The translations under genes and the position numbers were made by a program. A model generated the notes under the pieces. It saw nothing but the letters and a program-made list of their open reading frames with translations. It searched no databases and had not been told where the DNA came from. Below, piece by piece: positions 298 to 24,850 of a DNA stretch of 24,850 bases (position 1 is its first letter; the number at the start of each line of letters is the position of its first letter). This DNA comes from a virus (lineage: Duplodnaviria > Heunggongvirae > Uroviricota > Caudoviricetes): IMG/VR virus record IMGVR_UViG_2565956726_000010. One strand, 5' to 3'.

Positions 298-576
298 TTA
301 AAACCACTCCCTGAGCGGGCGCTCTGGTGTAACCACCCACTCACGGAACACGGAATCATCAAATCCATCGTCAAGAAGACGGATATTAACAAAGTACCCT
401 TCGTTTCGCGTGTATTCTGGTTCTCCGTCATCAGAAACATCTGTCTCCCTGAACGTAAAACCAATCTCATCAACCAGAACGGCATTCTGCAGCTCTTCGT
501 CCTCTTCCCAGTTAAGTTTCCTGAGAAATGCCCTGAAATCTGCTTTATCACTGAAACGCAACGTGAAATCTCTCAC
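298..576 (-). CDS. small highly acidic protein, function unknown (92 aa, GTG start)
   Basis: GTG at 576..574 overlaps the stf stop codon (GTGA) and has a strong GGGGAGG Shine-Dalgarno 7 nt upstream; no internal Met; Asp/Glu-rich with few basic residues; occupies the position where lambda carries tfa but has a different size and composition. Confidence 0.45.
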   Translation of the reverse strand: MRDFTLRFSDKADFRAFLRKLNWEEDEELQNAVLVDEIGFTFRETDVSDDGEPEYTRNEGYFVNIRLLDDGFDDSVFREWVVTPERPLREWF

Positions 577-2636
577 TCCACAACCTCCCCAAGCTGCGCA
601 TCTGTTAGCTCTTTATGCCAGAGACGAAAATTCCTCACATGCCCAAATAAATGGCGTAATCCTGCTGTAGTTTGTCCACCAATGCGAATGGTTGCTGTAC
701 TCCGGATATATTCCCATTTGGTTTTAGTTTCGCTGCTTAACTTACCGTTACTGACTACACATGTGGACCGTTCGGACTTTACCCGCATACCAATAAGCAT
801 TTTTTCCAGCCCGGCATTTTCATTTATTCGTCGGTCTGAACCACCTATATCGCAATACGGAAAACCGTCGTACCCACCTGATGAACCAAACCCCATTACG
901 ATCCCCGCATCTGCCTGATGCCGGTATGTGTCAAAAACACGCGGTGCTGCATTTGGCGTTTTATACCAGTTCTTATGTACCTCACAAAGAACCGTAAAAG
1001 GAAGATTATAAAGATTATTCTTAATCGGAACTGTAACCATATCGCTTGCCCGCGTTACCGGTGCCGTCCCCGTAACAATAAAAGATGATGCGCCTGTACC
1101 AGCCTCAATCTGTGGAGTGGTTACATCGAGATAATCCCCTGATGCAACCATCTGCCCTGTATCCGGAGAATACTGGACAAAACCACCAACCGTATTTTCT
1201 GTTGTATCTGCTTTTAATGTAGCCTCAAAAAATATCCAGCCAGTTGCATCATCCTTAACAGACCTTGCTGTAACACGGCTTGTCTGACCTGTCTTGCTAA
1301 TTATGCGGGTGGTAAGGTTCAGGTTTGCTGCTCCTATTGATGTCCTTACCTCCCCATCATAATGTTCAAATAAAATACGAACGGCGATATTATCAACTTC
1401 ACTTTTTACCCGACAGGATATAGTTACATGCTTTTCGTCCCCTGAAGTATCAACCCCTCCGGTACTCGAATACAGTCCGATAATGGTATGCGCTTTACTT
1501 GTACCAACAATCGAATCCTGTACGACAAACCGGCCATAATTAAACCCGAAACTATCTGTGCCTGTTTCTGTAACGTCCAGTGAAGTTGACTTATTCCACT
1601 TCGAAGGGTCTGTACTGTTCTGGAAGAAGTTCGTTCTTTGTCCCTCAATAAGCAGGCCATCACACTCAAATCGTGGCTCATTAATTTCCGCCGTTTTCAG
1701 TTCGCCAGATTTGTTGATATATGTTGCCGTTGATGCGCGACTGAAATTAATCTGTTTATCACTGGCAACCTGAACCACATTATCGCCAATCTTCACTTTT
1801 TTATAACCCGGAGAATAGCCCGTAATCATATCCAGCGAATCATTAAAGGGTATCCACACATCCGGCAGCGGCTGTAAAACATATCTGTACGGCTCTGCTG
1901 TCTGGTTTGCGTATTCTCTGGCAGCATCTTCACTTGCTTTTGCTGCCGTCTGGCTTGCTGCCGATGCTTTCGCCGAGTTCGCCGCCGCTGTTTCGCTCAC
2001 CTTTGCGTTGGCTTCACTGTCTTTGGCATTCGTCTCACTGGTTTTCGCTGCCGTCTGGCTGGATTTTGCGTTTTTTTCGCTGGCCTTTGTGGCTGTCTCG
2101 CTATTTTTCGCGTTGGTTTCTGATTTTTTGGCTGCTGTCGCGGAGTTTGCCGATGCAGTCTGCGAGGCCGCTGCCGCCTGTGCGCTGTTAGCTGCATTCG
2201 TTTCTGAGGTTTTCGCCGCATTCTTCGATGAGGCTGCTGCCGTTTCGGATTTCTTTGCCGCCGCTGCACTCTGTGATGACGCTCCGGCATGACGTGCCAC
2301 TTCATTCACCATCAGCTCAAAACGGCGCAGTGCCTCCGGACGAACATCATCCTCCGTCATGGCGCCGAGAAAATCATTCAGCGTACCTGGTCTGGAACCT
2401 TCATAGACGGTAATGGTCCCGGCATGTGAAGGTGGAAAACCTTCAACCAGCAGGGTGACGCTGTACTGGCCATACTCAACATCCATGCTGTAACGCCCGG
2501 CTTCATCCGGATTTTCAGAGGCCACCGTGTTCACCACCACCGTGCTGCTGGTCCGTCTGGCCTTCAGCACAATGGTGCAGTTCTGTACTGGTTTTCCTGT
2601 GCCATCTTTAAGCACGCCAGAAATTTTTACTGTCAT
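573..2636 (-). CDS. stf: side tail fiber protein (lambda Stf-like N-terminus, Ala/Ser/Thr-rich repeat shaft, non-lambda C-terminal domain)
   Basis: N-terminus MTVKISGVLKDGTGKPVQNCTIVLKA... is near-identical to my recollection of lambda Stf; ATG at 2636..2634; C-terminal ~450 aa unlike lambda and ending in a motif (VRNFRLWHKELTDAQL) resembling the C-terminal signature of LamG/concanavalin-like jellyroll domains. Confidence 0.9.
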   Translation of the reverse strand: MTVKISGVLKDGTGKPVQNCTIVLKARRTSSTVVVNTVASENPDEAGRYSMDVEYGQYSVTLLVEGFPPSHAGTITVYEGSRPGTLNDFLGAMTEDDVRPEALRRFELMVNEVARHAGASSQSAAAAKKSETAAASSKNAAKTSETNAANSAQAAAASQTASANSATAAKKSETNAKNSETATKASEKNAKSSQTAAKTSETNAKDSEANAKVSETAAANSAKASAASQTAAKASEDAAREYANQTAEPYRYVLQPLPDVWIPFNDSLDMITGYSPGYKKVKIGDNVVQVASDKQINFSRASTATYINKSGELKTAEINEPRFECDGLLIEGQRTNFFQNSTDPSKWNKSTSLDVTETGTDSFGFNYGRFVVQDSIVGTSKAHTIIGLYSSTGGVDTSGDEKHVTISCRVKSEVDNIAVRILFEHYDGEVRTSIGAANLNLTTRIISKTGQTSRVTARSVKDDATGWIFFEATLKADTTENTVGGFVQYSPDTGQMVASGDYLDVTTPQIEAGTGASSFIVTGTAPVTRASDMVTVPIKNNLYNLPFTVLCEVHKNWYKTPNAAPRVFDTYRHQADAGIVMGFGSSGGYDGFPYCDIGGSDRRINENAGLEKMLIGMRVKSERSTCVVSNGKLSSETKTKWEYIRSTATIRIGGQTTAGLRHLFGHVRNFRLWHKELTDAQLGEVVE
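1919..2285 (-). repeat. in-frame tandem short repeats encoding an Ala/Ser/Thr/Lys-rich low-complexity shaft inside stf
   Basis: Protein residues ~118-240 are iterations of units like AAKTSETNA / AKKSETNAKNSE; the DNA shows repeated gcttctgaaac / gccgctgc-type units; spurious ORFs appear in several frames on both strands here. Confidence 0.6.
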
Positions 2637-2787: not shown

Positions 2788-3387
2788 TCAGAAACGGTAT
2801 CCGATACCAACAATAAATGCATCCGTTCGCCAGTCGCCACTGCCGGAGCCTTCATAAGCAATATCAATGGCCACGGATTCGGTCGGGTTAAACTGCACGC
2901 CAGCTCCCCACGCCAGAGAGGTATTGCTGTGGCGACCGTCATCACTTCCGGTCAGCACGTCGTGCGTTTTCCCCTTGTTGTCAGTTACGCGGAGATAATC
3001 CCCGGAGAAAGTCGACACACGGCTGTAAGCCACACCCGCGATCGCATACGCGCTGAACCATTCATTCACGCGCACAGACGGCCCCGCCATCACGCTGAAC
3101 CAGCGGTTACGCACGGAATCTTCATGCCAGCGGGTATCGCTGTAATGCGTTTTTTGCTCATCTTTGGCATTGGCATAACTGAATGACGTCACCAGCCCCA
3201 GCGTGTCCGTAAATTCATAACGGTATTTCACGTTAATGCCCTTCAGGTCATCGCTGCCTGGCATATCAGTATGGGTCTGAAGATACCCGGCGCTTAGTGT
3301 GGACTGATGCTCTGCTGCGCTCGCTGGCGTACCAGCGGCGACCAGCCAGACTACTGTGGACAGAATAACAGCACATAATTTACGCAT
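2788..3387 (-). CDS. lom: Lom outer membrane protein (Ail/Lom/PagC family beta-barrel)
   Basis: 199 aa with N-terminal signal peptide (MRKLCAVILSTVVWLVAAGTPASA), C-terminal aromatic terminus (...GIGYRF) typical of OM beta-barrels; same position as lambda lom between J and stf; ATG at 3387..3385. Confidence 0.9.
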   Translation of the reverse strand: MRKLCAVILSTVVWLVAAGTPASAAEHQSTLSAGYLQTHTDMPGSDDLKGINVKYRYEFTDTLGLVTSFSYANAKDEQKTHYSDTRWHEDSVRNRWFSVMAGPSVRVNEWFSAYAIAGVAYSRVSTFSGDYLRVTDNKGKTHDVLTGSDDGRHSNTSLAWGAGVQFNPTESVAIDIAYEGSGSGDWRTDAFIVGIGYRF

Positions 3388-13513: not shown

Positions 13514-14217
13514 TAACTGACGGTAACAGTGCAGGAAGTAGAGGTCACTTTGTTAACCGGGCTTGCTGAATCAGAAATCTCGCAGGTATATGCACCCGCA
13601 TCACCGGATACTGCCGATGCCTTACTGAACGTTGCCGCCGTCTGTCCGGAAACAGGAGAACCACCTTTCTTCCAGACATAAGAATAAGGCGGCACACCAC
13701 CCGCAGCCTCAACCGCCATTTCAAGTTTCGATCCGGAAGCAACCCGCAGCGTGCTTTTTAAATCGACCTTCACTTTCAGCGGCTCTGTCGTCAGCACAGG
13801 TTTACCTTTCAGGCGCAGAGAAAACGTTGCAGCCACAACACCATTGGTTCCTGCAGACCAGGTATGCTGACGCACCTCTGCCATAAAGGTAAATCCGTTG
13901 CCTGACGGAAAAATAACTTTAAAGCCATACGTGGTGTCATTGTCATAGGCACTGCGCAACGCGTTCTGGGCAGCATTGAGGTAAAAGTTGCCTGACATGG
14001 AAATCTCTGAAGCAGCACCAAGGCCGTTAATATTTTCCTGCTCAACAGAACACAGCGTGGTGACATCAATATCCTGCTTTTGTCCTGCAGTAAACTGCAC
14101 CTCTTTGATTGTACAGCTCAGGCCAAGATAGCTGGCAGAATCCAGGGTTTCTGCTGTTACCGGTGCAGACGAAATCATAATTTTCGTCAGTTGCGAACGC
14201 TCAAAATTAGAGGACAT
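13513..14217 (-). CDS. major tail protein (V-analog) with C-terminal Ig-like domain
   Basis: ATG 14217..14215 (MSSNFERSQ...) with AGGAGACG Shine-Dalgarno; C-terminal ~80 aa has Ig-like features (PPYSYVWKK...GAYTCEISD); directly upstream of the G/GT chaperone; sequence is not lambda V-like. The annotated ORF extension to 14268 is rejected. Confidence 0.85.
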   Translation of the reverse strand: MSSNFERSQLTKIMISSAPVTAETLDSASYLGLSCTIKEVQFTAGQKQDIDVTTLCSVEQENINGLGAASEISMSGNFYLNAAQNALRSAYDNDTTYGFKVIFPSGNGFTFMAEVRQHTWSAGTNGVVAATFSLRLKGKPVLTTEPLKVKVDLKSTLRVASGSKLEMAVEAAGGVPPYSYVWKKGGSPVSGQTAATFSKASAVSGDAGAYTCEISDSASPVNKVTSTSCTVTVS

Positions 14218-14229
14218 ACTCGTCTCCTG

Positions 14230-14257
14230 AAAATAAAAAACCCGCCAGCGGCGGGTG
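14230..14257 (-). terminator. terminator-like hairpin upstream of the major tail gene
   Basis: Minus strand CCCGCC-GCTG-GCGGG followed by TTTTTTATTTT, between the stop of the 14277..14621 gene and the major tail Shine-Dalgarno. Confidence 0.45.
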
Positions 14258-14276
14258 GGTAAAATCATTAACGACC

Positions 14277-14621
14277 TCAGGCTATTACCTGAAATTCAAG
14301 CGTGGCTCTGCTCAGACGGGAGTCAGGATCATACCCCTGCGTTTTAGAAATAACGGAGGGTGCCAGTTTCCTTACTGCATCAAGCGCCTGCTCACGAATA
14401 TCATCTGCGTCATCAGGTACTGTCGCCCAGACATCGATCTGCACGGTAATTCTGGATTCAGCCTGCCCATCAAGCACATCAGATGCCGTGTCAGACACCA
14501 CAGAAAACACCAGCCACGGCGGAGATACCGCAGGCTTTCCCTCCGTCAGCGGGACCACATAAGGATAAACCTGTCCTCCGGCCAGCTGAGACAACAGGGA
14601 ATACAGTGTGCCCTCCCTCAT
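14277..14621 (-). CDS. putative tail terminator / head-tail joining protein (114 aa)
   Basis: Position immediately upstream of the major tail gene, matching the size and order of tail terminator proteins in HK97-like siphoviruses; start overlaps the stop of the preceding gene; function assigned by synteny only. Confidence 0.5.
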   Translation of the reverse strand: MREGTLYSLLSQLAGGQVYPYVVPLTEGKPAVSPPWLVFSVVSDTASDVLDGQAESRITVQIDVWATVPDDADDIREQALDAVRKLAPSVISKTQGYDPDSRLSRATLEFQVIA

Positions 14622-15067
14622 TTACTTAAGACCTCATCAATAGCCTGATTCATTCGCTGTATGGCAACCTGCGCCGCCAGCTCCTCTGTCGTATCGAAAG
14701 CCGGGCGAATGAATGGATGCGCGGGCATGTTTATCGTTCCCAGCTCCACAAAGCGCCAGTAAAATGCATTTCGGGGATCGCTGGCTTTCATGCTGTTATC
14801 ACTGTTTCCGGTTCGCAGGTTCCGTCCGCGAATGTGGACACCCGAGATAATTTCCCCCCGACGCTTTGAACGCTGAGTGAGAACAACCACATTTTTCTTC
14901 AGTTTCCCGGTTCGCTCCGGCGCACGTTCAACAACTGCATCCCGCATAACTTCAGCACCGGCACGGGTGGCATCGCGCAGAACCTTATTGTTTTCTGCCC
15001 TGCTGAGCGTCTCCAGATCCCGTGCAATATCCGCCAGGCCGGAAAAATCAAGACTGAAATCCATCAC
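14618..15067 (-). CDS. putative HK97 gp10-family neck / tail completion protein (149 aa)
   Basis: Synteny in the head-tail joining block; basic protein with start overlapping the stop of the upstream gene (ATGA-type coupling). Confidence 0.5.
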   Translation of the reverse strand: MMDFSLDFSGLADIARDLETLSRAENNKVLRDATRAGAEVMRDAVVERAPERTGKLKKNVVVLTQRSKRRGEIISGVHIRGRNLRTGNSDNSMKASDPRNAFYWRFVELGTINMPAHPFIRPAFDTTEELAAQVAIQRMNQAIDEVLSK

Positions 15068-15402
15068 ACATTCCCCTTCAGGCTGCAGAGTATTTCAAGC
15101 CGGGTAGCGCGTGCATCCGGTATTGGTGGACCTTCTATACCCAGAATGGCCCCTTTAAATGCACCGGTCAGCACTTTCAGACGTGAAGTCGCTGTCACAT
15201 CGCGCCGGAATCTCATCCAGACTCTGACCGTAGCCTGAGCGGTTTCTGCTCCGCCTGAGATTATCTCCCTCCCGCTGATACCCTTAACTTCTGCCCATAC
15301 GGTAGCTCCCTCCGTCACCGTCTCCACCGGATGCCCTGACGGAGAGCGGGCGGTGGTGACATTCAGAATAATTACGCGATCACGTAATCTGCCCGCCTGC
15401 AT
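15064..15402 (-). CDS. putative head closure / head-tail adaptor protein (112 aa)
   Basis: Synteny (second gene after the major capsid gene); size typical of HK97-like head closure proteins. Confidence 0.5.
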   Translation of the reverse strand: MQAGRLRDRVIILNVTTARSPSGHPVETVTEGATVWAEVKGISGREIISGGAETAQATVRVWMRFRRDVTATSRLKVLTGAFKGAILGIEGPPIPDARATRLEILCSLKGNV

Positions 15403-15410
15403 GTCTCCTC

Positions 15411-15728
15411 CTACAAAGGAATAAAACGATAAGGCTCCAGCAGAGAAGAAAAACCAAACGGGACTGGTGCCTTGCTGACATCTGAGGAATTTTCCCGGTT
15501 TTCGTACCAGTGCCCGACCAGCAACATGAGCGCCAGCAAAACATCATCAGCTATAAGCACCCCTTCAGGATCACCTTCCGGCACCGTCTCCTCATAAAGC
15601 TTACGGTTGATAAAATTTTCTGCCTTGCGGCAGGCAGCCCGGAAATACAGCATCAGTAACTCATCATCAGTTGCATCATCTGTATCAATACGGCACTGCG
15701 CCCTGAGTTTTTCCACTATTGCTGCCAT
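15411..15728 (-). CDS. putative gp6-like head-tail connector protein (105 aa)
   Basis: ATG 15728..15726 (MAAIVEKLRAQ...) with AGGAG Shine-Dalgarno; first gene after the major capsid gene and its terminator; the ORF extension to 15908 overlaps the capsid gene and is rejected. Confidence 0.55.
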   Translation of the reverse strand: MAAIVEKLRAQCRIDTDDATDDELLMLYFRAACRKAENFINRKLYEETVPEGDPEGVLIADDVLLALMLLVGHWYENRENSSDVSKAPVPFGFSSLLEPYRFIPL

Positions 15729-15760
15729 CAGAAACTCCTGCCCGCAACACTGTGCGGGCA

Positions 15761-15786
15761 TAAAAAAACCGCGTCGGCGCGGTCTG
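15761..15786 (-). terminator. intrinsic terminator / RNA-stabilising hairpin after the major capsid gene
   Basis: Minus strand ACCGCG-CCGA-CGCGGT followed by TTTTTTTAT, 20-40 nt after the capsid stop codon. Confidence 0.55.
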
Positions 15787-15804
15787 TAACTGAACAACGA
15801 GTGG

Positions 15805-17022
15805 TTATTTGCCAGTGAGCGCCTTGATGGCTGCCACATCTTCCAGCACACAGTCAAAACGATGGAAAGCCAGAAATGCCACCTGATCAAACTCAGCATA
15901 ACGCTCAACCAGACGTTTCAGTTCCATATAAGTAACGCGGCGAATGATAAAGCGGTTGAAATCCCCCAGGAAAATGAATTTTTTTCCGGTACCAATCCCG
16001 TCAATAGCCTGATCAATAACATAAGGGATCCCCAGCACAGTAGCCGGCGTACCGCCTGCAATATCCGGCAGCCATAACGGGCGTTTCTGCCCATCCTCCA
16101 TCTCTTCAATAGTCTGCAATGTGGCATCATTGAATGCCCAGCGGTATTTCGGCCCACCACGATATGCCGGATCAATGGCATGTTTCAGGGCATTCATTTC
16201 TTTCCAGGTGAAAGCGGCAGAGGCTGCAGTCTGGATGGTTCCCGTCACCGACGCTGCCAGCCCTTTTGGCTGTAACGGTGATCCCGTTCCGGTCCCCTGA
16301 ACCAGATATTTTGCCTCTCCACGACCAATACGCTGGGCAATACGGTTTGCCAGATAAGATTCAATATCCACCCCACTGTCCTGGAGCAGCTCATTGGACA
16401 CACGAATTATTTTTGATGACAGCTTTTTAGCCCCCAGAATAGCGGTCCCGAACGTCACATCCTGTTCCGTTGCGGCTGTATTTTCCGCCAGCAGTTCGCC
16501 CTCTTCAGTCGTGCCATCAGACGTTGACCAGGTGATATCCTGCCCGGTTGATGTGGTCAGAAGTTGCGCCACACTGGCAATCCCGCCATAAGCCTTCATG
16601 GTGTCAATGATTTTGTTACGCATCTGCGTGGGCACCGTATATCCGCCCTGAGAATCCGTTGTTACACTCTGAGCCCGCAGTTCACGCATCAGATTACGCT
16701 CTTCAGCATTCAGTTCTGCAAATCCGGCACGCAGAAAACGGTTAAATGCCGCAGCGCGCTTCTCTTCCACCGCCTTTTTCCCGTTCTCCGCCTCATTATT
16801 CTGGCGCTCTTCCGGCCCGGACTCATCCACATATGCCTGATCCTGACGGCGCAACTCTTCTTCACGGGCGATTTGCTCATCCAGCGCATCCAGCTCAGCT
16901 TTCGCCCTGTTCCACTCTGCCCGTTGCTCATCAGTCCATGCGTTATCACCAATTTTTTCATGCAGTGCACGCATATCCTTTGCAATGGTGTTTCGTTTTT
17001 GCTTCATCTCATGAAGTTTCAT
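15805..17022 (-). CDS. major capsid protein, HK97 family (with N-terminal delta/scaffold domain)
   Basis: 405 aa; N-terminal ~100 aa is a charged coiled-coil (delta domain) followed by an HK97-fold capsid body; follows the prohead protease as in HK97. Confidence 0.9.
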   Translation of the reverse strand: MKLHEMKQKRNTIAKDMRALHEKIGDNAWTDEQRAEWNRAKAELDALDEQIAREEELRRQDQAYVDESGPEERQNNEAENGKKAVEEKRAAAFNRFLRAGFAELNAEERNLMRELRAQSVTTDSQGGYTVPTQMRNKIIDTMKAYGGIASVAQLLTTSTGQDITWSTSDGTTEEGELLAENTAATEQDVTFGTAILGAKKLSSKIIRVSNELLQDSGVDIESYLANRIAQRIGRGEAKYLVQGTGTGSPLQPKGLAASVTGTIQTAASAAFTWKEMNALKHAIDPAYRGGPKYRWAFNDATLQTIEEMEDGQKRPLWLPDIAGGTPATVLGIPYVIDQAIDGIGTGKKFIFLGDFNRFIIRRVTYMELKRLVERYAEFDQVAFLAFHRFDCVLEDVAAIKALTGK

Positions 17023-17036
17023 CGTCAGTAGTATCC

Positions 17037-17636
17037 TTATGCATTAAGAAGGGTCAAAAGACGCTCACGCGCCATTCGTTCGTTAACAGCTTTCTTCAGC
17101 GCACCACTCGCCCGCGCTTCCTGCCAGGCTTTCATTGAGCGGACACCAGAGTCTGCGTCCTGATAGGCCGGATATGTCACCGGGCTGACGTCATACAGAC
17201 GAGAAATGCGCGTGATTTCCCGGATAACAATCCCCTCGTCGTCTTCATACCAGCTCTCTCCGTCACGGGCGACACGAAACGCGAACGAGGACTGATTAAT
17301 GTCACCACGCAACATTGGAGACAGCACCAGGTCACAAATAGTCGGAGTATCCGGTGCAACAATGTCATAACGTAAACCGCGTTCATCCACCGACAATGAC
17401 AACGTGCCGGCAAAACTTCGTCCGAGAATGAAATTAGGATCATGATTAAACAAGCCACGTACATCATCATTCAGTACATCATCAAAAGCCCCCGGCTTGA
17501 TGATTTCACGAAATCCCCACAGAGGTTCTGAACGACTGTTAAATACCGAGCCATACCCCAGAATGTGGGTCGGGGCATTATCATATTGTTCCGCCCGCAC
17601 CTCCCCGCTGTAACAGCGCGTTTCACGGTCATTCAT
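17037..17636 (-). CDS. prohead maturation protease (HK97 family, S78)
   Basis: 199 aa between portal and major capsid genes; overlaps the portal stop by 8 nt; size and position characteristic. Confidence 0.85.
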   Translation of the reverse strand: MNDRETRCYSGEVRAEQYDNAPTHILGYGSVFNSRSEPLWGFREIIKPGAFDDVLNDDVRGLFNHDPNFILGRSFAGTLSLSVDERGLRYDIVAPDTPTICDLVLSPMLRGDINQSSFAFRVARDGESWYEDDEGIVIREITRISRLYDVSPVTYPAYQDADSGVRSMKAWQEARASGALKKAVNERMARERLLTLLNA

Positions 17637-18855
17637 CGTTCTTTTCCTCTTTGCCTTTCGTATCTTTAAAGTTATTCAACGGATTTGCTGCATTTACGCT
17701 GACCAGCATTTCATCCAGACCGTCAACCGGGTTCATATCCTCAAATGCCCTGGCTTCATTCCGACTCATCCAGCCATCTGTAATGGCAAAGTGATAGAAC
17801 TGCGCACGCTCCTGTGGGGTCCCACGGAGCAACCCCGTGAGGTTGAAACGAACGTAATACCCGGCAGCCCGTTCTGTACGGGTAAACAGGCGACGGTTAA
17901 GCTCCTGCTCCCAGTTCGCAACCCAGGGCATCATCGTGTAGCGAACAAACTGAATCGCCTGCTGCGTAATATTCGAAAATGTGGCTTTTTCCAGGTCATT
18001 AATCATGTGCGCCGGGACATTAAAAATCCCGGCAATCATCGACCGGTTCAGCTTGGTCATATCAATGATCTGAGCATCCACCGGAGAAACTGTCAGAGCG
18101 CGGTAATCCAGTTGCGCAGGCAGCAACATGGTTTTATTTTCCTGGCTGCGAAGCGCTGTCACCGCCCGCTGCCACATATTTTTAAGCCTGCCCCAGCTTT
18201 GTTCGTTCAGTTCATTTTTCACAGAAATAATACCGGCAGGACGGGCATTACCGTTAAAAAAGGCGCTGGTATACTGCTGGCCACTCATTCCCATACCAAT
18301 GGTTTCAGCATGCTGCATGATCGGGCTCAGTCCCATTTTCTGATTGTTTCCCAGCGCCCTGATATGGATCATGTCGTCCGGACTTACCGCAAATGCACCC
18401 TCTTCGTTATACACCCCGTAAGTATGACGCCCACCGGTGTTAAGTAACGTGGTTTCCCATGGCATACAGCATTCAAGGCTGGTAACCTCTCCACGACGAT
18501 TACGTTTTACCCACGTATAACCATTGCCCCACCCCAGCACATGACGCTGCTTCAGTTCCCGCCACTTATAGCTGGTCTGCCAGGCATTAGGTTCATCATG
18601 AACGAGCCAGAACAACGGATGATCGCGTGCCGGCTGAACATGCTCATTCGTTTTTCGCATCACATGCAGGGGCATCTGAGCCACACTGGATGAAATAACA
18701 TAAATACAGGCATAGACAGCAGCCAGCTTCATGGATGTTTCCGGACTGACATACACATCCCGGGCAAAAATATTATCCGTCTCAGCGGCCTCTCCGGTTA
18801 CCGGAACCGAGGGATTTTCCAGAGGCTCACTGCGAAACAGAGCATCAAGAAGCAT
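17629..18855 (-). CDS. portal protein (HK97 family)
   Basis: 408 aa downstream of large terminase; strong GAGGAG Shine-Dalgarno 5 nt before ATG 18855..18853. Confidence 0.9.
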   Translation of the reverse strand: MLLDALFRSEPLENPSVPVTGEAAETDNIFARDVYVSPETSMKLAAVYACIYVISSSVAQMPLHVMRKTNEHVQPARDHPLFWLVHDEPNAWQTSYKWRELKQRHVLGWGNGYTWVKRNRRGEVTSLECCMPWETTLLNTGGRHTYGVYNEEGAFAVSPDDMIHIRALGNNQKMGLSPIMQHAETIGMGMSGQQYTSAFFNGNARPAGIISVKNELNEQSWGRLKNMWQRAVTALRSQENKTMLLPAQLDYRALTVSPVDAQIIDMTKLNRSMIAGIFNVPAHMINDLEKATFSNITQQAIQFVRYTMMPWVANWEQELNRRLFTRTERAAGYYVRFNLTGLLRGTPQERAQFYHFAITDGWMSRNEARAFEDMNPVDGLDEMLVSVNAANPLNNFKDTKGKEEKNDE

Positions 18856-18985
18856 GTTTTCTCCTCATGGACACCACCAGTGCATAAAGCAGCAACAAAC
18901 AGCCCGACAGCATCAGAGACGCTGGCAGACCTGCATACAGATAAACGCCAGCAGTGAGCAAACCGAAACCGATCAGCCCGGTCAT
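18845..18985 (-). CDS. possible small hydrophobic protein (46 aa) between terminase and portal
   Basis: ATG 18985..18983 to TGA 18847..18845; translation MTGLIGFGLLTAGVYLYAGLPASLMLSGCLLLLYALVVSMRRKHAS is one or two TM helices; not in the ORF track (below size cutoff); no convincing Shine-Dalgarno. Confidence 0.3.
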   Translation of the reverse strand: MTGLIGFGLLTAGVYLYAGLPASLMLSGCLLLLYALVVSMRRKHAS

Positions 18986-19002
18986 ATCAGTAATAAGCTG
19001 TT

Positions 19003-20760
19003 TCACAGAATTAACAGGTCCTCATCAGGATCAAGCGTGGACAGAAAGTCATTCACGCCCCCTCCATTTACCAGAAAGCGGCTCATGGCTGTAAAAAGCG
19101 CAACAGGGCCGTCGATTTTGGCTTCCGGCGTGGATTTATTCGGGAAGATGTTGTCGTTTTTGTCCGGTTTTACAGTAACGTTAGACATCATCCAGTTCAT
19201 GACCGGATGATTGCTGTGATGGAAACGCCCGGCATAAACCAGTGATTCCGTTTCCTTCATGGCCTCTGACAGATTGCGGACCGTCTGCGGAACCTCCACC
19301 AGCGGTATCCCTTCTTCAGCCAGTGCCAGGCTGAACTGCATTGCGCTCCACGGGTCAAATCCCAGTTCCCTGAGGTTTTCACCGCCAATCCATTCCAGTA
19401 AGTCACTTTTTATCTGAGCATGATCGATAACATCACCATCCGTCAGGATGAGCTTATCCATCTCCGCCCACTTCCGGTAAAGTTCTGCCTGCTGCCGCGA
19501 GCATCGTTCCAGCCGTCCTTCCGGAAGCCAGAATTTAAAATCAGCATGAACATGTCCGTTATCGGTTCGCCAGAGTTTTGCCGCCGCACAGATATCAATC
19601 TTATGAGCAAGGTCGACGCCGACCCACATGGGATATGTTTTCAGCTCATGTTGTGGAGCAATGTATTCGCACTTCTCCCACTTAATCATATCCATCCAGG
19701 CAGATTCGGCAGTGACCCACACATTCATGTGTTTGGTAAAAAAATTCACCCGCGCAGAGACCTGCTCCTTCGCTTTTTTCGCCAGACGACGCAGATCATC
19801 CCAGCGTTTACAGATGCCCAGGCCAGGATTCGCTTTCTGCCAGACCGTTTCATCAAACGGATCATCTCCCTCATCAAGCGTGTAAATGATCGCAAAGTAA
19901 GAGTCGTCTTTTACAGCGCCCTCCACGTCGCTGTTATAGCCTCGCAATACCTTGATGGCGTAATCACGCTGCTCGTAACAAATCCCTTCCTTGTTAAAGC
20001 CAGCCGTGGTGATACCAAATAACAGGGACTGCAGACGGGCACCGGTTGCCGTTTCCAGAACGTCCCACACGTCGCGGGTTTTATGTGCATGCAGCTCATC
20101 AATAATGGCGCAGTGGATGTTCAGACCGTCCAGGTTGTTTGCATCCGAGGAAAGCGGTTCAAATTTTGATGCGCTCTGCTCCTGGTAAATCGCCAGCTTG
20201 TTGAAATCAAACAACCGCCCGAGTGTCGACCGGGCTTTTCTGACCATATTTTTGGCGTCTTCAAACACGATTCTGGCCTGGTCACGCGTGGTTGCGGCTG
20301 AATACACCTCAGCTCCGCCTTCACTATCTGCCCCCGTCATATACAGGCCGATACCCGATGACAGTGTTGATTTTGCGTTTTTACGGGCGACTTCGTTGTA
20401 CGCCGTCCGGAACCGGCGCACCATCACCGGACGTCCGCTGCCATCGCTGCGCATGACAACTTCCCCGGTTTCTTCATTGACCAGCGGAATGACAAAACCA
20501 AAAATATTAATGAGGATAAATACATGCCAGTCCATCAACTCAATGGGCTGGCCTGCCAGTGCCCCTTTTACATGAGGCACAAATTTGTAGAAATTCAGGA
20601 TGTGCTGCGCACGGGGTTCACTGAAATAAATCCCCCGCTTTTCGCCGTACTTCAGATCATCAAGAAAACGCTGGCAGGCCAGGCGGACAAATTCGCCAGC
20701 AACAATTTCTCCTGCAACAACACGTTCGGCGTAGCGGATCCCGTCAGCCACTTTTGCCAT
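19003..20760 (-). CDS. terminase large subunit
   Basis: 585 aa; Walker A-like region near the N-terminus and acidic nuclease-type motifs; ATG 20760..20758 overlaps the small terminase stop (TGATG). Confidence 0.9.
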   Translation of the reverse strand: MAKVADGIRYAERVVAGEIVAGEFVRLACQRFLDDLKYGEKRGIYFSEPRAQHILNFYKFVPHVKGALAGQPIELMDWHVFILINIFGFVIPLVNEETGEVVMRSDGSGRPVMVRRFRTAYNEVARKNAKSTLSSGIGLYMTGADSEGGAEVYSAATTRDQARIVFEDAKNMVRKARSTLGRLFDFNKLAIYQEQSASKFEPLSSDANNLDGLNIHCAIIDELHAHKTRDVWDVLETATGARLQSLLFGITTAGFNKEGICYEQRDYAIKVLRGYNSDVEGAVKDDSYFAIIYTLDEGDDPFDETVWQKANPGLGICKRWDDLRRLAKKAKEQVSARVNFFTKHMNVWVTAESAWMDMIKWEKCEYIAPQHELKTYPMWVGVDLAHKIDICAAAKLWRTDNGHVHADFKFWLPEGRLERCSRQQAELYRKWAEMDKLILTDGDVIDHAQIKSDLLEWIGGENLRELGFDPWSAMQFSLALAEEGIPLVEVPQTVRNLSEAMKETESLVYAGRFHHSNHPVMNWMMSNVTVKPDKNDNIFPNKSTPEAKIDGPVALFTAMSRFLVNGGGVNDFLSTLDPDEDLLIL

Positions 20761-21242
20761 CAGTCTCTCGCTTTTAAAAGCTCTGCCAGCGGATCAACAT
20801 TATCCGGTCCGGCGGTATTTACTTTTGCCCGGCTTGCCGGTGACATACCAAATTCTGCAAGCATCGCCCGGATCCGCTTCCAGGCATCCGCTTTCATCGC
20901 AGCAGCCGGGTGTGCCTTAATCAGCACATCACCGTTCTGCGTTTCCGAGCGGTAGGTGTACCCCTCAACATCGAGTGTTTCGCAGTGATGCCGGTATTCG
21001 GTATAGGCTTCCACCAGTAGCTCAAGCGCACGCGCATCAAGCTGAGAAATGATCCCTTCCGCATTCAGCTCTTCCGCCATTCGCCTGAACCAGTACTTCC
21101 CCTGCGCCCCTAAATGTTGCGGAATTTTAGGGAGACCTTTTTCATCCTTTTTAGCGGTTTTTTTGAGGTCTTTAACTGGCCGCTTTGAGGGGTTGCCTCG
21201 TATCAAATGCAGGCGTGGCGGGATTTTCGGGGGTCCAGACAT
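20760..21242 (-). CDS. terminase small subunit (P27-like family)
   Basis: 160 aa basic N-terminus (PKIPPRLHLIRGNPSKRPVKDLKK) directly upstream of and coupled to the large terminase gene. Confidence 0.8.
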   Translation of the reverse strand: MSGPPKIPPRLHLIRGNPSKRPVKDLKKTAKKDEKGLPKIPQHLGAQGKYWFRRMAEELNAEGIISQLDARALELLVEAYTEYRHHCETLDVEGYTYRSETQNGDVLIKAHPAAAMKADAWKRIRAMLAEFGMSPASRAKVNTAGPDNVDPLAELLKARD

Positions 21243-21389
21243 AATCGGTTTTACCTATCAATCATTTAATCACATTCCAAAAAAAAGTTTTCGAACCTGC
21301 GGCGATGCGAGGAAAGGTCAGGCGGCGGTACTGAGCAGCCAGGGTTGCAGAGATTTGACCCGCCCCTCCCCTACAGATGGGAACTGTTA
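21243..21389 (-). other. presumed cos (cohesive end) region between HNH endonuclease and small terminase
   Basis: Synteny only: HK97-like phages place cos between the HNH gene and terS; the interval is non-coding and contains a GC-rich motif (aggtcaggcggcggtac) next to A/T tracts; the exact nick sites cannot be identified by eye. Confidence 0.3.
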
Positions 21390-21740
21390 TCAATTGATGC
21401 GTTCGCGCGCTGTTTTTGCTTTATGACAGGGCCAGCACAGACTCTGCAGGTTACTGTCTGCATCTGTGCCACCATGAGCTTTCGGAATGATGTGGTCCAC
21501 AGTTCTGGCTTCAACGGCTCTCCCATTGCGCAGGCAGTTCTGACACAGATGATTATCACGCTTCAGTATGCGCGCACGTATGGCATCCCATTTCGAGCCA
21601 TAGCCACGCTGGTGGCGGCTCAGTCCGCGTTGATGCTGTACCCATCCTTCGCCACGATGTTTATCGCAGTAACCAGAACTGTCTGTGGTTGTACCTGCAC
21701 ATCCACGCTTACGGCAGGCGCGTGGGATTAGTGCTGGCAT
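21390..21740 (-). CDS. HNH endonuclease (terminase-associated)
   Basis: 116 aa with Cys pairs and the HNH core (CQNCLRNGR...VDHIIPKAHGGTDADSNLQSLCWPCHKAK); positioned just upstream of cos/terS as in HK97 gp74. Confidence 0.85.
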   Translation of the reverse strand: MPALIPRACRKRGCAGTTTDSSGYCDKHRGEGWVQHQRGLSRHQRGYGSKWDAIRARILKRDNHLCQNCLRNGRAVEARTVDHIIPKAHGGTDADSNLQSLCWPCHKAKTARERIN

Positions 21741-21758
21741 GTTTCGCCCTTATATAAA
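21728..21758 (+). promoter_or_regulatory. candidate sigma70-like promoter for the plus-strand moron gene
   Basis: TTAGTG then 17 nt then TATATA(AAT), about 120 nt upstream of ATG 21879; by-eye match only. Confidence 0.25.
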
Positions 21759-21878
21759 TCAAAGGTGACCTGCATTGAGTATCTCCATGGAATAGATTTG
21801 CTGCTGATATGAGACAGATCAATAGACTTCATGAGCCAACGGGTGTAGATATTACTTTTTACTTCAGAGGGTTAACTC

Positions 21879-22418
21879 ATGGATATTAAAGATAAAATCA
21901 ATACCATTTTGTTATGTGACATTGCCATCCACCTAGGTATCGAAACTGATATTGATCCACAGCTTGTTAAATATGCTGTGTCATCTGGTAATGATTGGGT
22001 TATCAAGGCCGAATATTCACATTTGGATGTTGACGAACCAAGTAAAGAAGATCGTGATTTTGTTACTGCTGTCTTGAATATGTATCGCGGACTTTCCAAT
22101 GCTTTCAGGAAACTTAGTGATGACGAGCAAAAAGAATTAGTCCGTGACCATCATCTAAAAATACATGATGGGGCAATTCAGCTCCCAGGTTTCGACGGTA
22201 ATAATGAATGCGATTACTTCAGTATCATTGAGGCATATCAGAAAATTGATCGCTTCCCCGAACAGAAACAGCCCATTGCCAATACTCATTCACGTACAGA
22301 ACATCTCTATAACGCAATGCTTGATGAGTTTAAGAAAATTGACGCTGTAAATCGAAGCTGGGATTTATCGAAGGAAGAACTGGCATCCATTCTTTCCACA
22401 GCTCCACGCAGTTTCTAA
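21879..22418 (+). CDS. YfbU-family (UPF0304)-like protein, 179 aa; moron on the opposite strand to the phage late operon
   Basis: ATG 21879 with AGAGG Shine-Dalgarno ~8 nt upstream; AT-rich coding sequence; by-eye alignment to my recollection of E. coli YfbU across four blocks ([24 protein letters not shown] ~ [34 protein letters not shown] ~ [29 protein letters not shown] ~ [29 protein letters not shown] ~ LSANEINQII); followed by a hairpin terminator. Confidence 0.6.
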   Translation: [179 protein letters not shown]

Positions 22419-22423
22419 GTGCT

Positions 22424-22690
22424 TTAGGCGGGTTTCCAACCCGCCTTATTATGCTCGTATATAGAGAAGGAAGCACCCAAATTAACCAGCGCGGATTTCT
22501 TTTCCTCAATACGGCTGTTAAGTTCAGCAACTGCATGCGGGCGTATGGCCTCAAGAAAAGCACTATATTGATAGGCAGACTGGATTGTCACACCAAGCCC
22601 TGCACCACTTTCCAGTATACCTTTCTGTCGCTGTAGCTCTTTCATCTCGTTATAGATGTAATGTGCGTTACTTAGGTTTTCTACGTTCAC
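22424..22690 (-). CDS. hypothetical 88-aa protein (GTG start) convergent with the YfbU-like gene
   Basis: Protein-like helical composition; AGGAAG about 10 nt upstream of GTG 22690..22688; alternative ATG at 22645 gives 73 aa; its last codons overlap the terminator hairpin, which lowers confidence. Confidence 0.35.
   Translation of the reverse strand: MNVENLSNAHYIYNEMKELQRQKGILESGAGLGVTIQSAYQYSAFLEAIRPHAVAELNSRIEEKKSALVNLGASFSIYEHNKAGWKPA
22426..22447 (+). terminator. intrinsic terminator after the YfbU-like gene (possibly bidirectional)
   Basis: AGGCGGGTT-TCCA-AACCCGCCT followed by TATTATG, 8 nt after the plus-strand stop codon; it overlaps the 3' end of the convergent 88-aa ORF. Confidence 0.5.
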
Positions 22691-22845
22691 GCCCTAAGTT
22701 CTTCCTGCAGTTAGCCTGCACTGATTTGTTATGCGCCAATATGTCCCGCTTCGTCTGTTGCATTATCATAAGTAATAGCGTAGGTTGACACCTTGGCTCT
22801 CTTTCGCCACCGGCGAATCTTTAGCGGATTATCCTTGGCCGGTTT

Positions 22846-23313
22846 TTATCTGAGACATTGCTCACGAATGTATAGCTGTGCCCCTTCCAGTTGCTTCTGC
22901 ATCGTCATCAACCGTTCTCTGAGGGTGAAATAATCCCGTTCAGCGGTGTCTGCCAGTCTGGGGCTGGTTGCATTATCCACGCTGGTGGGTCCGGTGGCTT
23001 CACGCACGGCTGCGGAGCAACTGGCATTGACCCGCAGGCGCTTACGACCAGCGGCAACATCAGCGCGCAGAGTTTCATTTTCAGCTTTCGCATTGGCTAA
23101 TTCTCTCGAGTACTTTGCATCGAGCGCAGCAACATCACGCTGACGCTGTTGCATGTCAGCGATGGTGGCAGTCGCCTGCTTCAGCTCACTGACTTTTTTA
23201 TCACGCTGTTCTTTGTAGGCGATGGCGTTATCACGGTAATGATTGACCGCCCACGACAGGCAGACGATGGTGCAGATAACCAGAGTATAAATAATCGCTG
23301 CGACTCTGCTCAC
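22846..23313 (-). CDS. Rz: i-spanin Rz
   Basis: Aligns to lambda Rz ([33 protein letters not shown] vs lambda [33 protein letters not shown]); start taken as GTG 23313..23311 overlapping the endolysin stop; the ORF track's upstream extension begins at a TTG. Confidence 0.85.
22908..23093 (-). CDS. Rz1: o-spanin Rz1 (lipoprotein embedded in Rz in the +1 frame)
   Basis: 61 aa [22 protein letters not shown]... with lipobox Cys and a proline-rich segment, C-terminus ...[15 protein letters not shown] as in lambda Rz1; entirely inside Rz. Confidence 0.85.
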
Positions 23314-23843
23314 TGATCTATCCCCCAACAGGCTAATGCGCTTTCCTGGTCACGACGAATAACCTGTCCATAGCAGTTATTTGAACGTATGCGGCAATCG
23401 CGCCCACCATCTTTTATCCACCAGCGAATCGCCTCGCATGCGCCCTTACGATCACCGGCATTCAGCCGCTTATAAAACGTCGACGGGAAACACTTACCGG
23501 GGCCAATGTTATAGGGACAGAATGACGCTATACCCGCTTTCTGTGGTTCGGTCAGTGGTACTTTAATATTGCGCTCTACCCATGCCAGCGCCTTATCACG
23601 TTCAATAGCGTTAACCTGGTCGCATTTTTCCTTCGACAGCTTCATTCCCGGTATGACGGGCTTACCATCCACCATTGTGGCACCCCGACAGATGGTCCAG
23701 ATGCCGGCCCCATCGCGGTATGCCGTTGTGTGGTTACCTTCTTTTTCATCCAGAAACTGGTCGAGAATATCAGGCGCGGGCGCACCGACGGCAATCAGTG
23801 CCAGAACGGCAGCCGACAGGCCGTATCTGATTTTTGCGTTCAT
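23310..23843 (-). CDS. R: endolysin, T4-lysozyme-like glycosidase with N-terminal SAR (signal-arrest-release) segment
   Basis: 177 aa; weakly hydrophobic Gly/Ala-rich N-terminus ([18 protein letters not shown]) followed by a catalytic region with E...D...T spacing ([20 protein letters not shown]), as in phage 21 / P1 SAR lysozymes. Confidence 0.85.
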
Positions 23844-23906
23844 GGATATTTATCAGGATTTATCGGTTTCTGCCCACGGACAGGTTTATCTGTTCCGGTC
23901 AGTGAC

Positions 23907-24257
23907 TTAAGGTTGTGATTCCGGAGGAGTCTTCAGAGAACCAGTAATTCTTCCTGGTAGCTTTCCTTTGTAGGTTATCCACACATTCTGCGCCTCTAAA
24001 ATTACGGGGCGCTTTTCCGGCGACTGCTCATCCCCTTCACATAACCCGGCAGCAACATCCAGGAAGACCTGTCTGATGCTCCTTCTGGCTGCTGCCTCAT
24101 AAAACCCCAGCGCGGCACCTTCAACACGGTCCAGCGAGATGTCCAGGTCAAAAATTTCACCGTCAAAGCGTTTTTTGTCCCGTAACGCTAAAGTTACCGT
24201 AACTTTATTCTCAAAATTGCGGATCCCTTTCACAATCAGTTCATAGTTTTGAGTCAT
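23907..24257 (-). CDS. hypothetical 116-aa soluble protein upstream of the endolysin (possibly DUF1327-like)
   Basis: Native start ATG 24257..24255 (MTQNYELIVKG...) with GGGGAGAG Shine-Dalgarno 7 nt upstream; no hydrophobic segment, so not a holin; I recall an unrelated-function gene in the same position (ydfR in E. coli Qin) but cannot verify family membership. The ORF-track extension to 24311 is an IS2 read-out artefact. Confidence 0.55.
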   Translation of the reverse strand: MTQNYELIVKGIRNFENKVTVTLALRDKKRFDGEIFDLDISLDRVEGAALGFYEAAARRSIRQVFLDVAAGLCEGDEQSPEKRPVILEAQNVWITYKGKLPGRITGSLKTPPESQP

Positions 24258-24284
24258 TGAATTACTCTCCCCGTGCAGCCTTAC

Positions 24285-24850
24285 TGGATTTGCCCCTATA
24301 TTTCCAGACACCTGTTATCACTTAACCCATTACTGGCTTGCTGCCGTAGATATTCCCGTGGCGAGCGATAACCCAGTGCACTATGCGGATGCCATTCGTT
24401 ATAATGCTCGAACGCCTCTGCAAGGTTCTTTGCTGCCGTTAACCCGTCTGGTTTGGGCATGACACTGATGTAGTCACGCTTTATCGTTTTCACGAAGCTC
24501 TCTGCTATGCCGTTACTCTCCGGACTCCGCACCGCCGTGCTCTTCGGTTCAAGCCCCAACATCCGGGCAAACTGCCGTGTTTCATTAGCCCGGTAGCATG
24601 AACCATTATCCGTCAGCCACTCTACTGGAGACGCCGGAAGCTCGTTGCCGAAGCGGCGTTCCACCGCTCCCAGCATGACGTCCTGTACTGTTTCACTGTT
24701 GAAGCCGCCCGTAGTGACCGCCCAGTGCAGTGCCTCACGGTCACAGCAGTCCAGCGCGAACGTGACTCGCAGTTTTTCTCCGTTATCACAGCGGAACTCG
24801 AACCCGTCAGAGCACCATCGCTGATTACTTTCTTTCACAGCCACTCTGCC
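24285..24850 (-). mobile_element. IS2 insertion sequence, right-end portion (element continues beyond the window)
   Basis: Terminal sequence tggatttgcccctatatttccagaca at 24285..24310 matches the IS2 right inverted repeat as I recall it; the adjacent ORF translates to the C-terminal part of IS2 transposase InsD. Confidence 0.9.
24296..24850 (-). CDS. insD: IS2 transposase InsD (orfB, DDE integrase core), 5'-truncated by the window edge
   Basis: Translation ...[66 protein letters not shown]...[36 protein letters not shown] is near-identical to my recollection of IS2 InsD; the first codon in the window is GTG (Val), not a true start. Confidence 0.9.

Follow-up and report, generated by a model that had tools for sequence, protein, structure and literature searches.

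What occupies the gap that separates lysis from packaging genes in a lambdoid prophage, and what might a gene do there that is read against the surrounding late operon? The question is raised by the IMG/VR record IMGVR_UViG_2565956726_000010 (Caudoviricetes), of which a stretch of 24,850 nucleotides (nt), here called the window, was analysed; these 24.85 kb represent the late region of a lambdoid Escherichia coli prophage with an HK97-type head, and the late genes of the window all lie on the minus strand. Between the i-spanin gene Rz and an HNH endonuclease gene, an AT-rich island (21741-22845) harbours a plus-strand gene for a 179-amino-acid (aa) protein of the YfbU family and, converging with it, a small open reading frame (ORF) on the minus strand, ORF B. 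New is that the YfbU clade characterized by the motif GFDGNNE is a recurrent, orientation-locked cargo of a hot spot in enterobacterial prophages; the annotation as 'YfbU family protein', the bor/iss slot and, from Tai, the placement upstream of the packaging genes together with the antisense architecture were already known.

The composition sets the island apart from its surroundings. The island has a GC content of 0.420, whereas the window as a whole has 0.522 and all stretches of 1105 nt outside the island average 0.527 +/- 0.035 (z = -3.0); no other stretch of this length in the window is as poor in GC, so that an initial reading of the same DNA from the sequence alone (the sequence-only reading), which had estimated around 40% against more than 50%, is borne out at a computed 42.0% versus 52-53%, with its coordinates exact. 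The dip is uneven, as the plus-strand gene has a GC content of 0.391 (0.339 at third codon positions, GC3) and the spacer upstream of it likewise 0.391, compared to 0.50-0.57 (GC3 0.47-0.68) in the late genes, while ORF B (0.453) and the Rz-side spacer (0.484) are near the phage background. The coordinates of the island are the actual recombination boundaries and coincide with gene edges, as homology to alternative alleles of the slot ends on the left exactly at the HNH start codon (21740/21741) and on the right within the last ~30 nt of Rz. Positions 13742-24284 of the window are 99.2% identical (10.5 kb compared) to the prophage of E. coli O7:K1 CE10, in which, according to RefSeq, the genes from the tail fibre to replication are all in the late direction except one, 'YfbU family protein'; this sole exception is the gene that the sequence-only reading had picked out as running against all other phage genes.

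That the slot is swappable is evident from 5,426 complete E. coli genomes searched with the Rz-island-HNH-TerS stretch, which display three alleles between Rz and HNH flanks of at least 95% identity. The island allele is found with the whole Rz-to-TerS stretch in 207 genomes, with at least 80% of the island in 224 and with any part of it in 307; a second allele, in 551 genomes, is an 850-bp insert whose gene iss, homologous to bor, likewise has plus-strand orientation; and the third is empty, with Rz separated from HNH by no more than 42 bp in E. coli strain 1437 (flanks 92-98% identical). Strain 1437 shows that the island is extra DNA between genes which are adjacent in a related phage, and the composition of this DNA is distinct from that of the surrounding phage genes (GC 0.42 versus 0.53). 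With very little room for doubt, the island is moron cargo, acquired horizontally, in a lysis-packaging hot spot, equivalent to the Rz-to-cos slot of lambda bor, as had been proposed. As iss and empty alleles exist, the view of the gene as a core component of the whole phage lineage is contradicted.

The same placement recurs far beyond E. coli. A YfbU profile recovered 78 IMG/VR contigs with YfbU-like genes 28-100% identical, and in all 74 of the loci with a recognisable flank the order is packaging genes on the minus strand, YfbU on the plus strand and lysis genes on the minus strand. On the packaging side, 44 loci have an HK97-type TerL/TerS/HNH arrangement and 5 have lambda-type GpA/Nu1, and on the lysis side Rz, lysozyme, GH19 or spanin genes belong to at least three lysis cassettes. 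The same layout is seen in genomic loci of Providencia, Enterobacter, Klebsiella and Salmonella, and in lambda-type prophages the YfbU-like gene abuts the cos/Nu1 region. An insertion encoding a 326-aa transposase-like protein splits the YfbU gene of a single IMG/VR contig (L135, 4277-6193, and L231), an example of cargo decay.

The cargo protein matches Pfam PF03887 (YfbU/UPF0304) over residues 46-172 with a score of 46.3 bits (E 6.5e-12; cut-off 25), the structures 1wpb and 4lr3 are matched by a profile built from 31 homologues (E 2.7e-9), and the AlphaFold2 (AF2) model, with a predicted local distance difference test score (pLDDT) of 91, displays the two-domain all-helical YfbU fold of PDB 1WPB/4LR3. 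The product is thus, contrary to the initial assumption, not undescribed and carries the family name in RefSeq. As the NCBIfam equivalog NF003936/PRK05445 scores 34.8 bits, below its 90-bit cut-off, the protein is, judged by sequence, a member of a separate subfamily and no orthologue of chromosomal YfbU. This subfamily comprises more than 700 clusters at 90% identity, with an invariant GFDGNNE motif and a conserved N-x-H and Y, and ranges from Proteobacteria to Bacillota and Saccharibacteria; genes of the YfbU family are also frequent on small plasmids of many phyla. The ratio of non-synonymous to synonymous substitution rates (dN/dS) among the E. coli, Klebsiella and Salmonella copies is 0.12-0.13, and hundreds of genomes have the gene with an unbroken reading frame; it is real and under purifying selection. 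A match to the Cfr10I/Bse634I restriction endonucleases (18.4 bits, cut-off 27), without support from the fold search, was dismissed.

The plus-strand gene is apparently an independent antisense transcription unit. A Shine-Dalgarno sequence (GAGGG, 21867-21871) is positioned seven nt ahead of the ATG, and two upstream blocks (21817-21834 and 21842-21855; GATCAATAGACTTCATGA ... GGTGTAGATATTAC) are common to the copies of E. coli, Klebsiella and Salmonella. The hairpin downstream of the gene, with a 9-bp stem (-20 kcal/mol, z -2.5), is terminator-like for the plus-strand transcript and each distant YfbU-like copy examined (Providencia, Enterobacter and others) likewise has a hairpin of its own 3' of the gene. 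In the window, the YfbU gene and ORF B share one hairpin at their converging 3' ends, and the minus strand encodes the end of ORF B there. A non-coding RNA as an alternative content of the island was rejected, as Rfam gives no match at E <= 1 within it.

With respect to function, the favoured reading, to which we assign about even weight, is that the YfbU-like gene may be an anti-phage defence gene; we infer this from fold, position and analogy. The model is Kamadhenu, the Lactococcus plasmid gene pUCCL624_130 (180 aa), a single-gene abortive-infection system with YfbU fold (Grafakou et al., NAR 2024, PMC11381338). In the lysogen, the YfbU-like gene would be transcribed from its own weak promoter, and its product would, like Kamadhenu, act as a single-protein abortive-infection defence against superinfecting phages. 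Upon prophage induction, Q-antiterminated late transcription would cross the gene in antisense and silence it, as has been proposed for taiEcA on induction (PMC11364771). Escape of phages from Kamadhenu is due to a point change that affects a Sak-like single-strand annealing protein (SSAP) (PNAS 2025, PMC12184496); a trigger of the prophage protein linked to an SSAP or to recombination is conceivable, albeit rather doubtful.

Several observations weigh against an anti-phage role. No sigma-70 promoter was detected upstream of the gene by consensus and looser scans, the best loose match (TAGACT-19-GATATT) being unconvincing, and the U-tract of the hairpin is weak (TATTATGCT), with no call by the consensus terminator scan; from the pair of promoter and hairpin postulated by the sequence-only reading, the hairpin with its GC-rich stem stands and the promoter is unconfirmed by the scans. 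PADLOC-DB 2.0 has no match for the YfbU-like protein or ORF B, and an already catalogued defence system was rejected on these grounds; from the defence-database check proposed at the outset there is thus no assignment for either protein, and what speaks for defence cargo at this position is TaiEcA/AtiEcA in the slot of relatives. The slot carries non-defence cargo as well (iss, glycosyltransferase), so position alone is no proof of defence. Of about 75 non-phage homologues, 28 are in an operon with a single-pass membrane protein of ~166 aa, a homologue of which was found neither in the window nor in the 78 viral loci by HMM search, and the solo prophage protein, without this membrane partner, may act differently. 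The relationship with Kamadhenu rests on a shared Pfam family, fold and size only, and the other studied member, chromosomal YfbU, has been linked to MazF- and DNA-damage-associated death, not to phage (PMC2646832).

The last point leads to an alternative that we consider unlikely, namely that the gene is a host-physiology or stress moron which tunes DNA-damage or MazF-linked death or the SOS response, lysogen survival or the timing of induction. The sole functional data on E. coli YfbU are of this kind, as MazF-linked death following DNA damage requires the chromosomal protein (PMC2646832), which is also tied to suppression of the SOS response (PMC2646832, PMC4161249). Moreover, the slot alleles iss/bor are host-fitness and not defence genes, and PADLOC has no match. 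Transfer of a stress function to the prophage protein is, however, discouraged by an identity of only ~15% to chromosomal YfbU and by the equivalog score far below its cut-off, and E. coli already possesses yfbU. That the family is distributed over plasmids and prophages of different phyla is more in keeping with a conflict system than with a host-specific pathway, and Kamadhenu, the sole family member from a mobile element to be tested, is anti-phage.

Improbable is a function in the phage lytic cycle, be it as a packaging, cos or lysis-timing accessory or as an anti-defence protein. Such a role would be in line with the location between lysis and packaging genes, which does not vary between two unrelated terminase types, and with the adjacency to cos/Nu1 in lambda-type prophages. 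Yet the gene is antisense to the late operon in all 74 informative loci, so that late transcription opposes its expression, and near-identical phages lack it or carry iss instead; foreign composition and the common occurrence of homologues outside phages equally speak against a lytic-cycle gene.

The relationship of the YfbU-like gene with ORF B requires separate consideration, since ORF B had been regarded as a second cargo gene. It has no Pfam, NCBIfam or PADLOC match; 276 homologue clusters exist, its dN/dS among the E. coli, Klebsiella and Salmonella copies is 0.19-0.26, consistent with purifying selection, and AF2 models it (pLDDT 75) as a generic helical hairpin without significant matches in the PDB. 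Most relatives stop at 76 aa. The extra 12 codons in the window (IYEHNKAGWKPA, within 22424-22462) read through the hairpin and are modelled by AF2 as a low-confidence beta-hairpin; this tail probably reflects a lost stop codon and is no functional extension. In Klebsiella, Salmonella and Citrobacter prophages, ORF B is the last small late gene after the spanins, with the slot downstream, before HNH. Among the 80 IMG/VR contigs recovered through ORF B, at least 45 loci have ORF B without YfbU, including one with Tai/Ati and several with empty slots. Conversely, ORF B accompanies 35/35 YfbU genes of the clade with at least 89% identity and is absent in 42 of 43 viral loci with YfbU-like genes below 89% identity and in 9/9 lambda-type genomic loci with a YfbU-like gene. 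By these sequence comparisons, ORF B belongs to the late-gene backbone of a different lysis cassette and is no cargo; it is located on the late-operon strand and, in the prophages named, conserved upstream of the slot irrespective of what the slot contains.

How ORF B came to be present at this locus is indicated by the remaining 3' end of an o-spanin gene from a different lysis cassette of the Klebsiella/Enterobacter type; this relic overlaps the ORF B start and marks the recombination junction for the entry of ORF B and the YfbU gene alike. The relic resembles 'DKQTKRDILAHNKAWQANC', the C-terminus of a 62-aa lipoprotein (L007, 6597-6785), and in Klebsiella and Enterobacter prophages an intact o-spanin gene overlaps the start of ORF B in the same way (67-aa ORF in L013 and L014). 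ORF B is present here because the segment entered the E. coli phage via recombination inside a spanin gene, dragging ORF B along, which makes it probably a hitch-hiker outside the YfbU system.

Slightly less probable still than a lytic-cycle gene is a two-gene module in which YfbU is the immune or toxic component and ORF B a late counter-defence protein or antitoxin, comparable to AtiEcA and TaiEcA. Such a module would account for an antisense gene beside a sense late gene of 76-88 aa with converging 3' ends and one hairpin, for the complete association within the clade of at least 89% identity and for the lack of ORF B in the iss and empty alleles of E. coli. The numerous loci with one gene and not the other, together with the lack of similarity of ORF B to AtiEcA, led us to reject ORF B as a partner, antitoxin or counter-defence protein of YfbU; the co-occurrence is explained by linkage in one lineage, with the spanin relic showing the way of arrival.

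Finally, decaying DNA or a neutral hitch-hiker that now lacks any function, to which the destruction of the holin gene of this prophage by an insertion sequence (IS), the read-through tail of ORF B and the negative promoter scans might point, is very unlikely in view of the low dN/dS of the YfbU-like gene, its intact frame in hundreds of genomes and motifs invariant across phyla.

The features of the island and its flanks are compiled in the table.

Features of the island and the adjoining late genes (positions in the window)
Feature	Positions	Strand	Remarks
TerL	19003-20760	-	
TerS (P27 family)	20760-21242	-	
HNH endonuclease gene, left flank of island	21390-21740	-	PF01844 E 1.9e-16 and CE10 annotation
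AT-rich spacer, 5' region of YfbU-family gene	21741-21878	+	GC 0.39; from HNH start codon to gene
YfbU-family gene, 179 aa	21879-22418	+	cargo proper; antisense to Q-dependent late operon
ORF B, 88 aa	22424-22690	-	GTG start; phrog_5415 E 2e-38
GC-rich hairpin AGGCGGGTT-tcc-AACCCGCCT	22426-22446	.	8 nt past YfbU stop codon
Relic of o-spanin 3' end, 33-aa ORF MIMQQTKRDILAHNKSVQANC...	22668-22769	-	overlaps ORF B start
Rz-ORF B spacer	22691-22845	-	right junction of imported segment; holds spanin relic; GC 0.484
Rz i-spanin gene, right flank of island	22846-23328	-	closes lysis cassette; PF03245 E 1.9e-49, phrog_13
Rz1, embedded in Rz	22908-23093	-	
Lysozyme gene	23310-23843	-	
YdfR/DUF1327 gene	23907-24311	-	

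The HNH product is a packaging accessory of the HK97-type terminase. At the other end of the region, the identity to CE10 ceases at 24284, 23 nt inside the 3' end of a class II holin gene, and is followed (24285-24850) by an IS transposase with an rve integrase core, the ORF of which (24296-24844) runs off the window. The holin gene is disrupted in this copy, and the prophage is probably lysis-defective, with the island intact. The window contains a second classic moron, a gene for an outer-membrane protein of the Ail/Lom family (2788-3387, minus strand) between J and the tail-fibre gene, and the tail-fibre region (573-2636, minus strand) is its sole other low-GC stretch (0.44 near position 700). 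In Klebsiella/Salmonella prophages with the same island (L013, 603-2680; L019, 1105-3182), an antisense gene pair, the products of which match RelA_SpoT (PF04607) and NA37 (PF04245), is located between Q and the holin gene; this pair has the appearance of a further antisense cargo module, placed at a second hot spot within the late operon.

The slot itself is variably occupied. Between ORF B and HNH, IMG/VR relatives have a YfbU-like gene in ~33 loci, and elsewhere the slot is empty (243 bp) or holds AT-rich genes of 119, 131, 157, 161, 187, 196 or 226 aa. Besides YfbU and Tai/Ati, at least eight such single genes, 119-226 aa in length with a GC content of 0.34-0.41 and on either strand (L130, L139, L154, L155, L171, L149, L151), were observed in all, none of these small genes having a Pfam or PADLOC assignment; they are candidates for new prophage cargo functions. 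The 187-aa protein contains an R-N-A-F-L-H (HEPN-like) motif, and a GT2 glycosyltransferase of 485-490 aa is present in the slot of L149 and L169. PADLOC gave two weak matches only for the slot cargo of relatives. One slot (L182, 5306-6131) carries TaiEcA, 98% identical to phi80 orf63, with AtiEcA (91%); TaiEcA contains an R-N-D-L-A-H motif and has a weak PADLOC match to CARF_HEPN (E 0.004). Another (L181, 5897-6094) has an Ati fragment followed by a YfbU gene, an arrangement which suggests successive cargo exchanges at the slot. Cumulatively, the Rz/ORF B-to-HNH junction accommodates a rich variety of cargo, with iss, Tai/Ati, YfbU and no fewer than eight other uncharacterised genes, and as a hot spot it could be mined for new defence genes.

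On a broader scale, we tentatively propose, as somewhat less probable than the defence role of the single gene, that YfbU-fold proteins with the GFDGNNE motif constitute a widespread, unrecognised family of anti-phage effectors or sensors of mobile elements. Three forms would be distinguished: the solo prophage gene, the operon with the ~166-aa membrane protein and a fusion with a ribbon-helix-helix-like extension in Saccharibacteria. As to the second form, in diverse non-enteric bacteria a gene for a ~166-aa protein is found upstream of the GFDGNNE-type YfbU gene on the same strand, with gaps of 3-15 nt between the predicted ORFs (L034, 4465-4968; L038, 4468-4968; L049, L056, L060, L072 and ~20 further loci). 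Its product, without Pfam or PADLOC match, consists of a single transmembrane helix at the N-terminus and a helical portion in the cytoplasm, and pairs of this membrane protein and YfbU, which occur in Pseudomonas, Psychrobacter, Alteromonas and many others, look like an undescribed two-gene module. In the third form, seen in metagenome-assembled genomes of Saccharibacteria (L059, 1642-2358; L091, 3999-4700), the YfbU-like domain has an N-terminal extension of ~50 residues which, on visual inspection of the alignment, resembles a ribbon-helix-helix (CopG/Arc-type) DNA-binding domain and hints that the fold may be used in regulation or like an antitoxin. The 142 neighbours of the non-phage homologues include a few TIR, GmrSD, HerA, PARIS, integrase and resolvase genes; counted with no background control, an enrichment of defence genes is only suggestive and was not relied on.

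If the anti-phage role holds true, Kamadhenu would be one member of a family present in about 4-6% of complete E. coli genomes and in many prophages of Klebsiella, Salmonella, Citrobacter and Enterobacter, and the long-orphan YfbU fold would gain a testable function in a tractable host. Under the broader proposal of a widespread GFDGNNE family, the 'death gene' phenotype of chromosomal YfbU and that of Kamadhenu would reflect a single mechanism of abortive infection, with intermediates of phage recombination or DNA damage as the sensed signal. Without anti-phage activity, the gene would be an ordinary annotated moron.

Compared with known systems, the prophage gene resembles Kamadhenu as a single gene of ~180 aa with a YfbU fold on a mobile element and without a conserved partner. 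The two differ in residence, a Gram-positive plasmid versus an enterobacterial prophage, and the anti-phage phenotype and the SSAP-linked escape have been shown for Kamadhenu alone; tblastn of PLSDB with two queries gave no match in Lactococcus, and Kamadhenu is not among the top profile matches. Chromosomal E. coli YfbU (UPF0304; PDB 1WPB, 4LR3) shares the Pfam family, the fold and the region of the core G-F-D...E...Y motif. Apart from the low overall identity, it differs in length (164 versus 179 aa) and motif (GFDAATE versus GFDGNNE), H137 is not conserved, and chromosomal YfbU is a core gene, whereas the YfbU-like gene of the prophage is mobile cargo.

Lambda bor/iss has the slot, the antisense orientation and a similar size in common with the YfbU-like gene, iss being literally an allele of the island. 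On the other hand, Bor and Iss are outer-membrane lipoproteins that confer serum resistance, to which the YfbU-like protein is unrelated in sequence: in a Pfam scan only PF03887 is above threshold, and the DNA homology of the iss allele is limited to the flanks.

The closest precedent in architecture is TaiEcA/AtiEcA of phi80, validated defence and counter-defence genes in a 'noncontiguous operon' (He et al., Nat Commun 2024, PMC11364771), the tai genes lying for the most part upstream of the genes for packaging, in antisense inside the Q operon (PMC11364771). In both cases, an antisense gene lies upstream of packaging inside the Q-dependent late operon, a layout present in the window and in 74/74 informative viral loci, and a small sense-strand gene adjoins it. 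Differences are the reversed gene order, ORF B, which is not specifically tied to YfbU, and the mode of action, as Tai blocks tail assembly and nothing suggests likewise for the YfbU-like protein. By BLASTP and tblastn against the window and the slot proteins, phi80 orf63/orf64 match only L181 and L182, leaving YfbU and ORF B unmatched. If the YfbU-like gene is a defence gene, it would thus provide a second, independent case of the antisense-in-late-operon layout with built-in self-silencing on induction.

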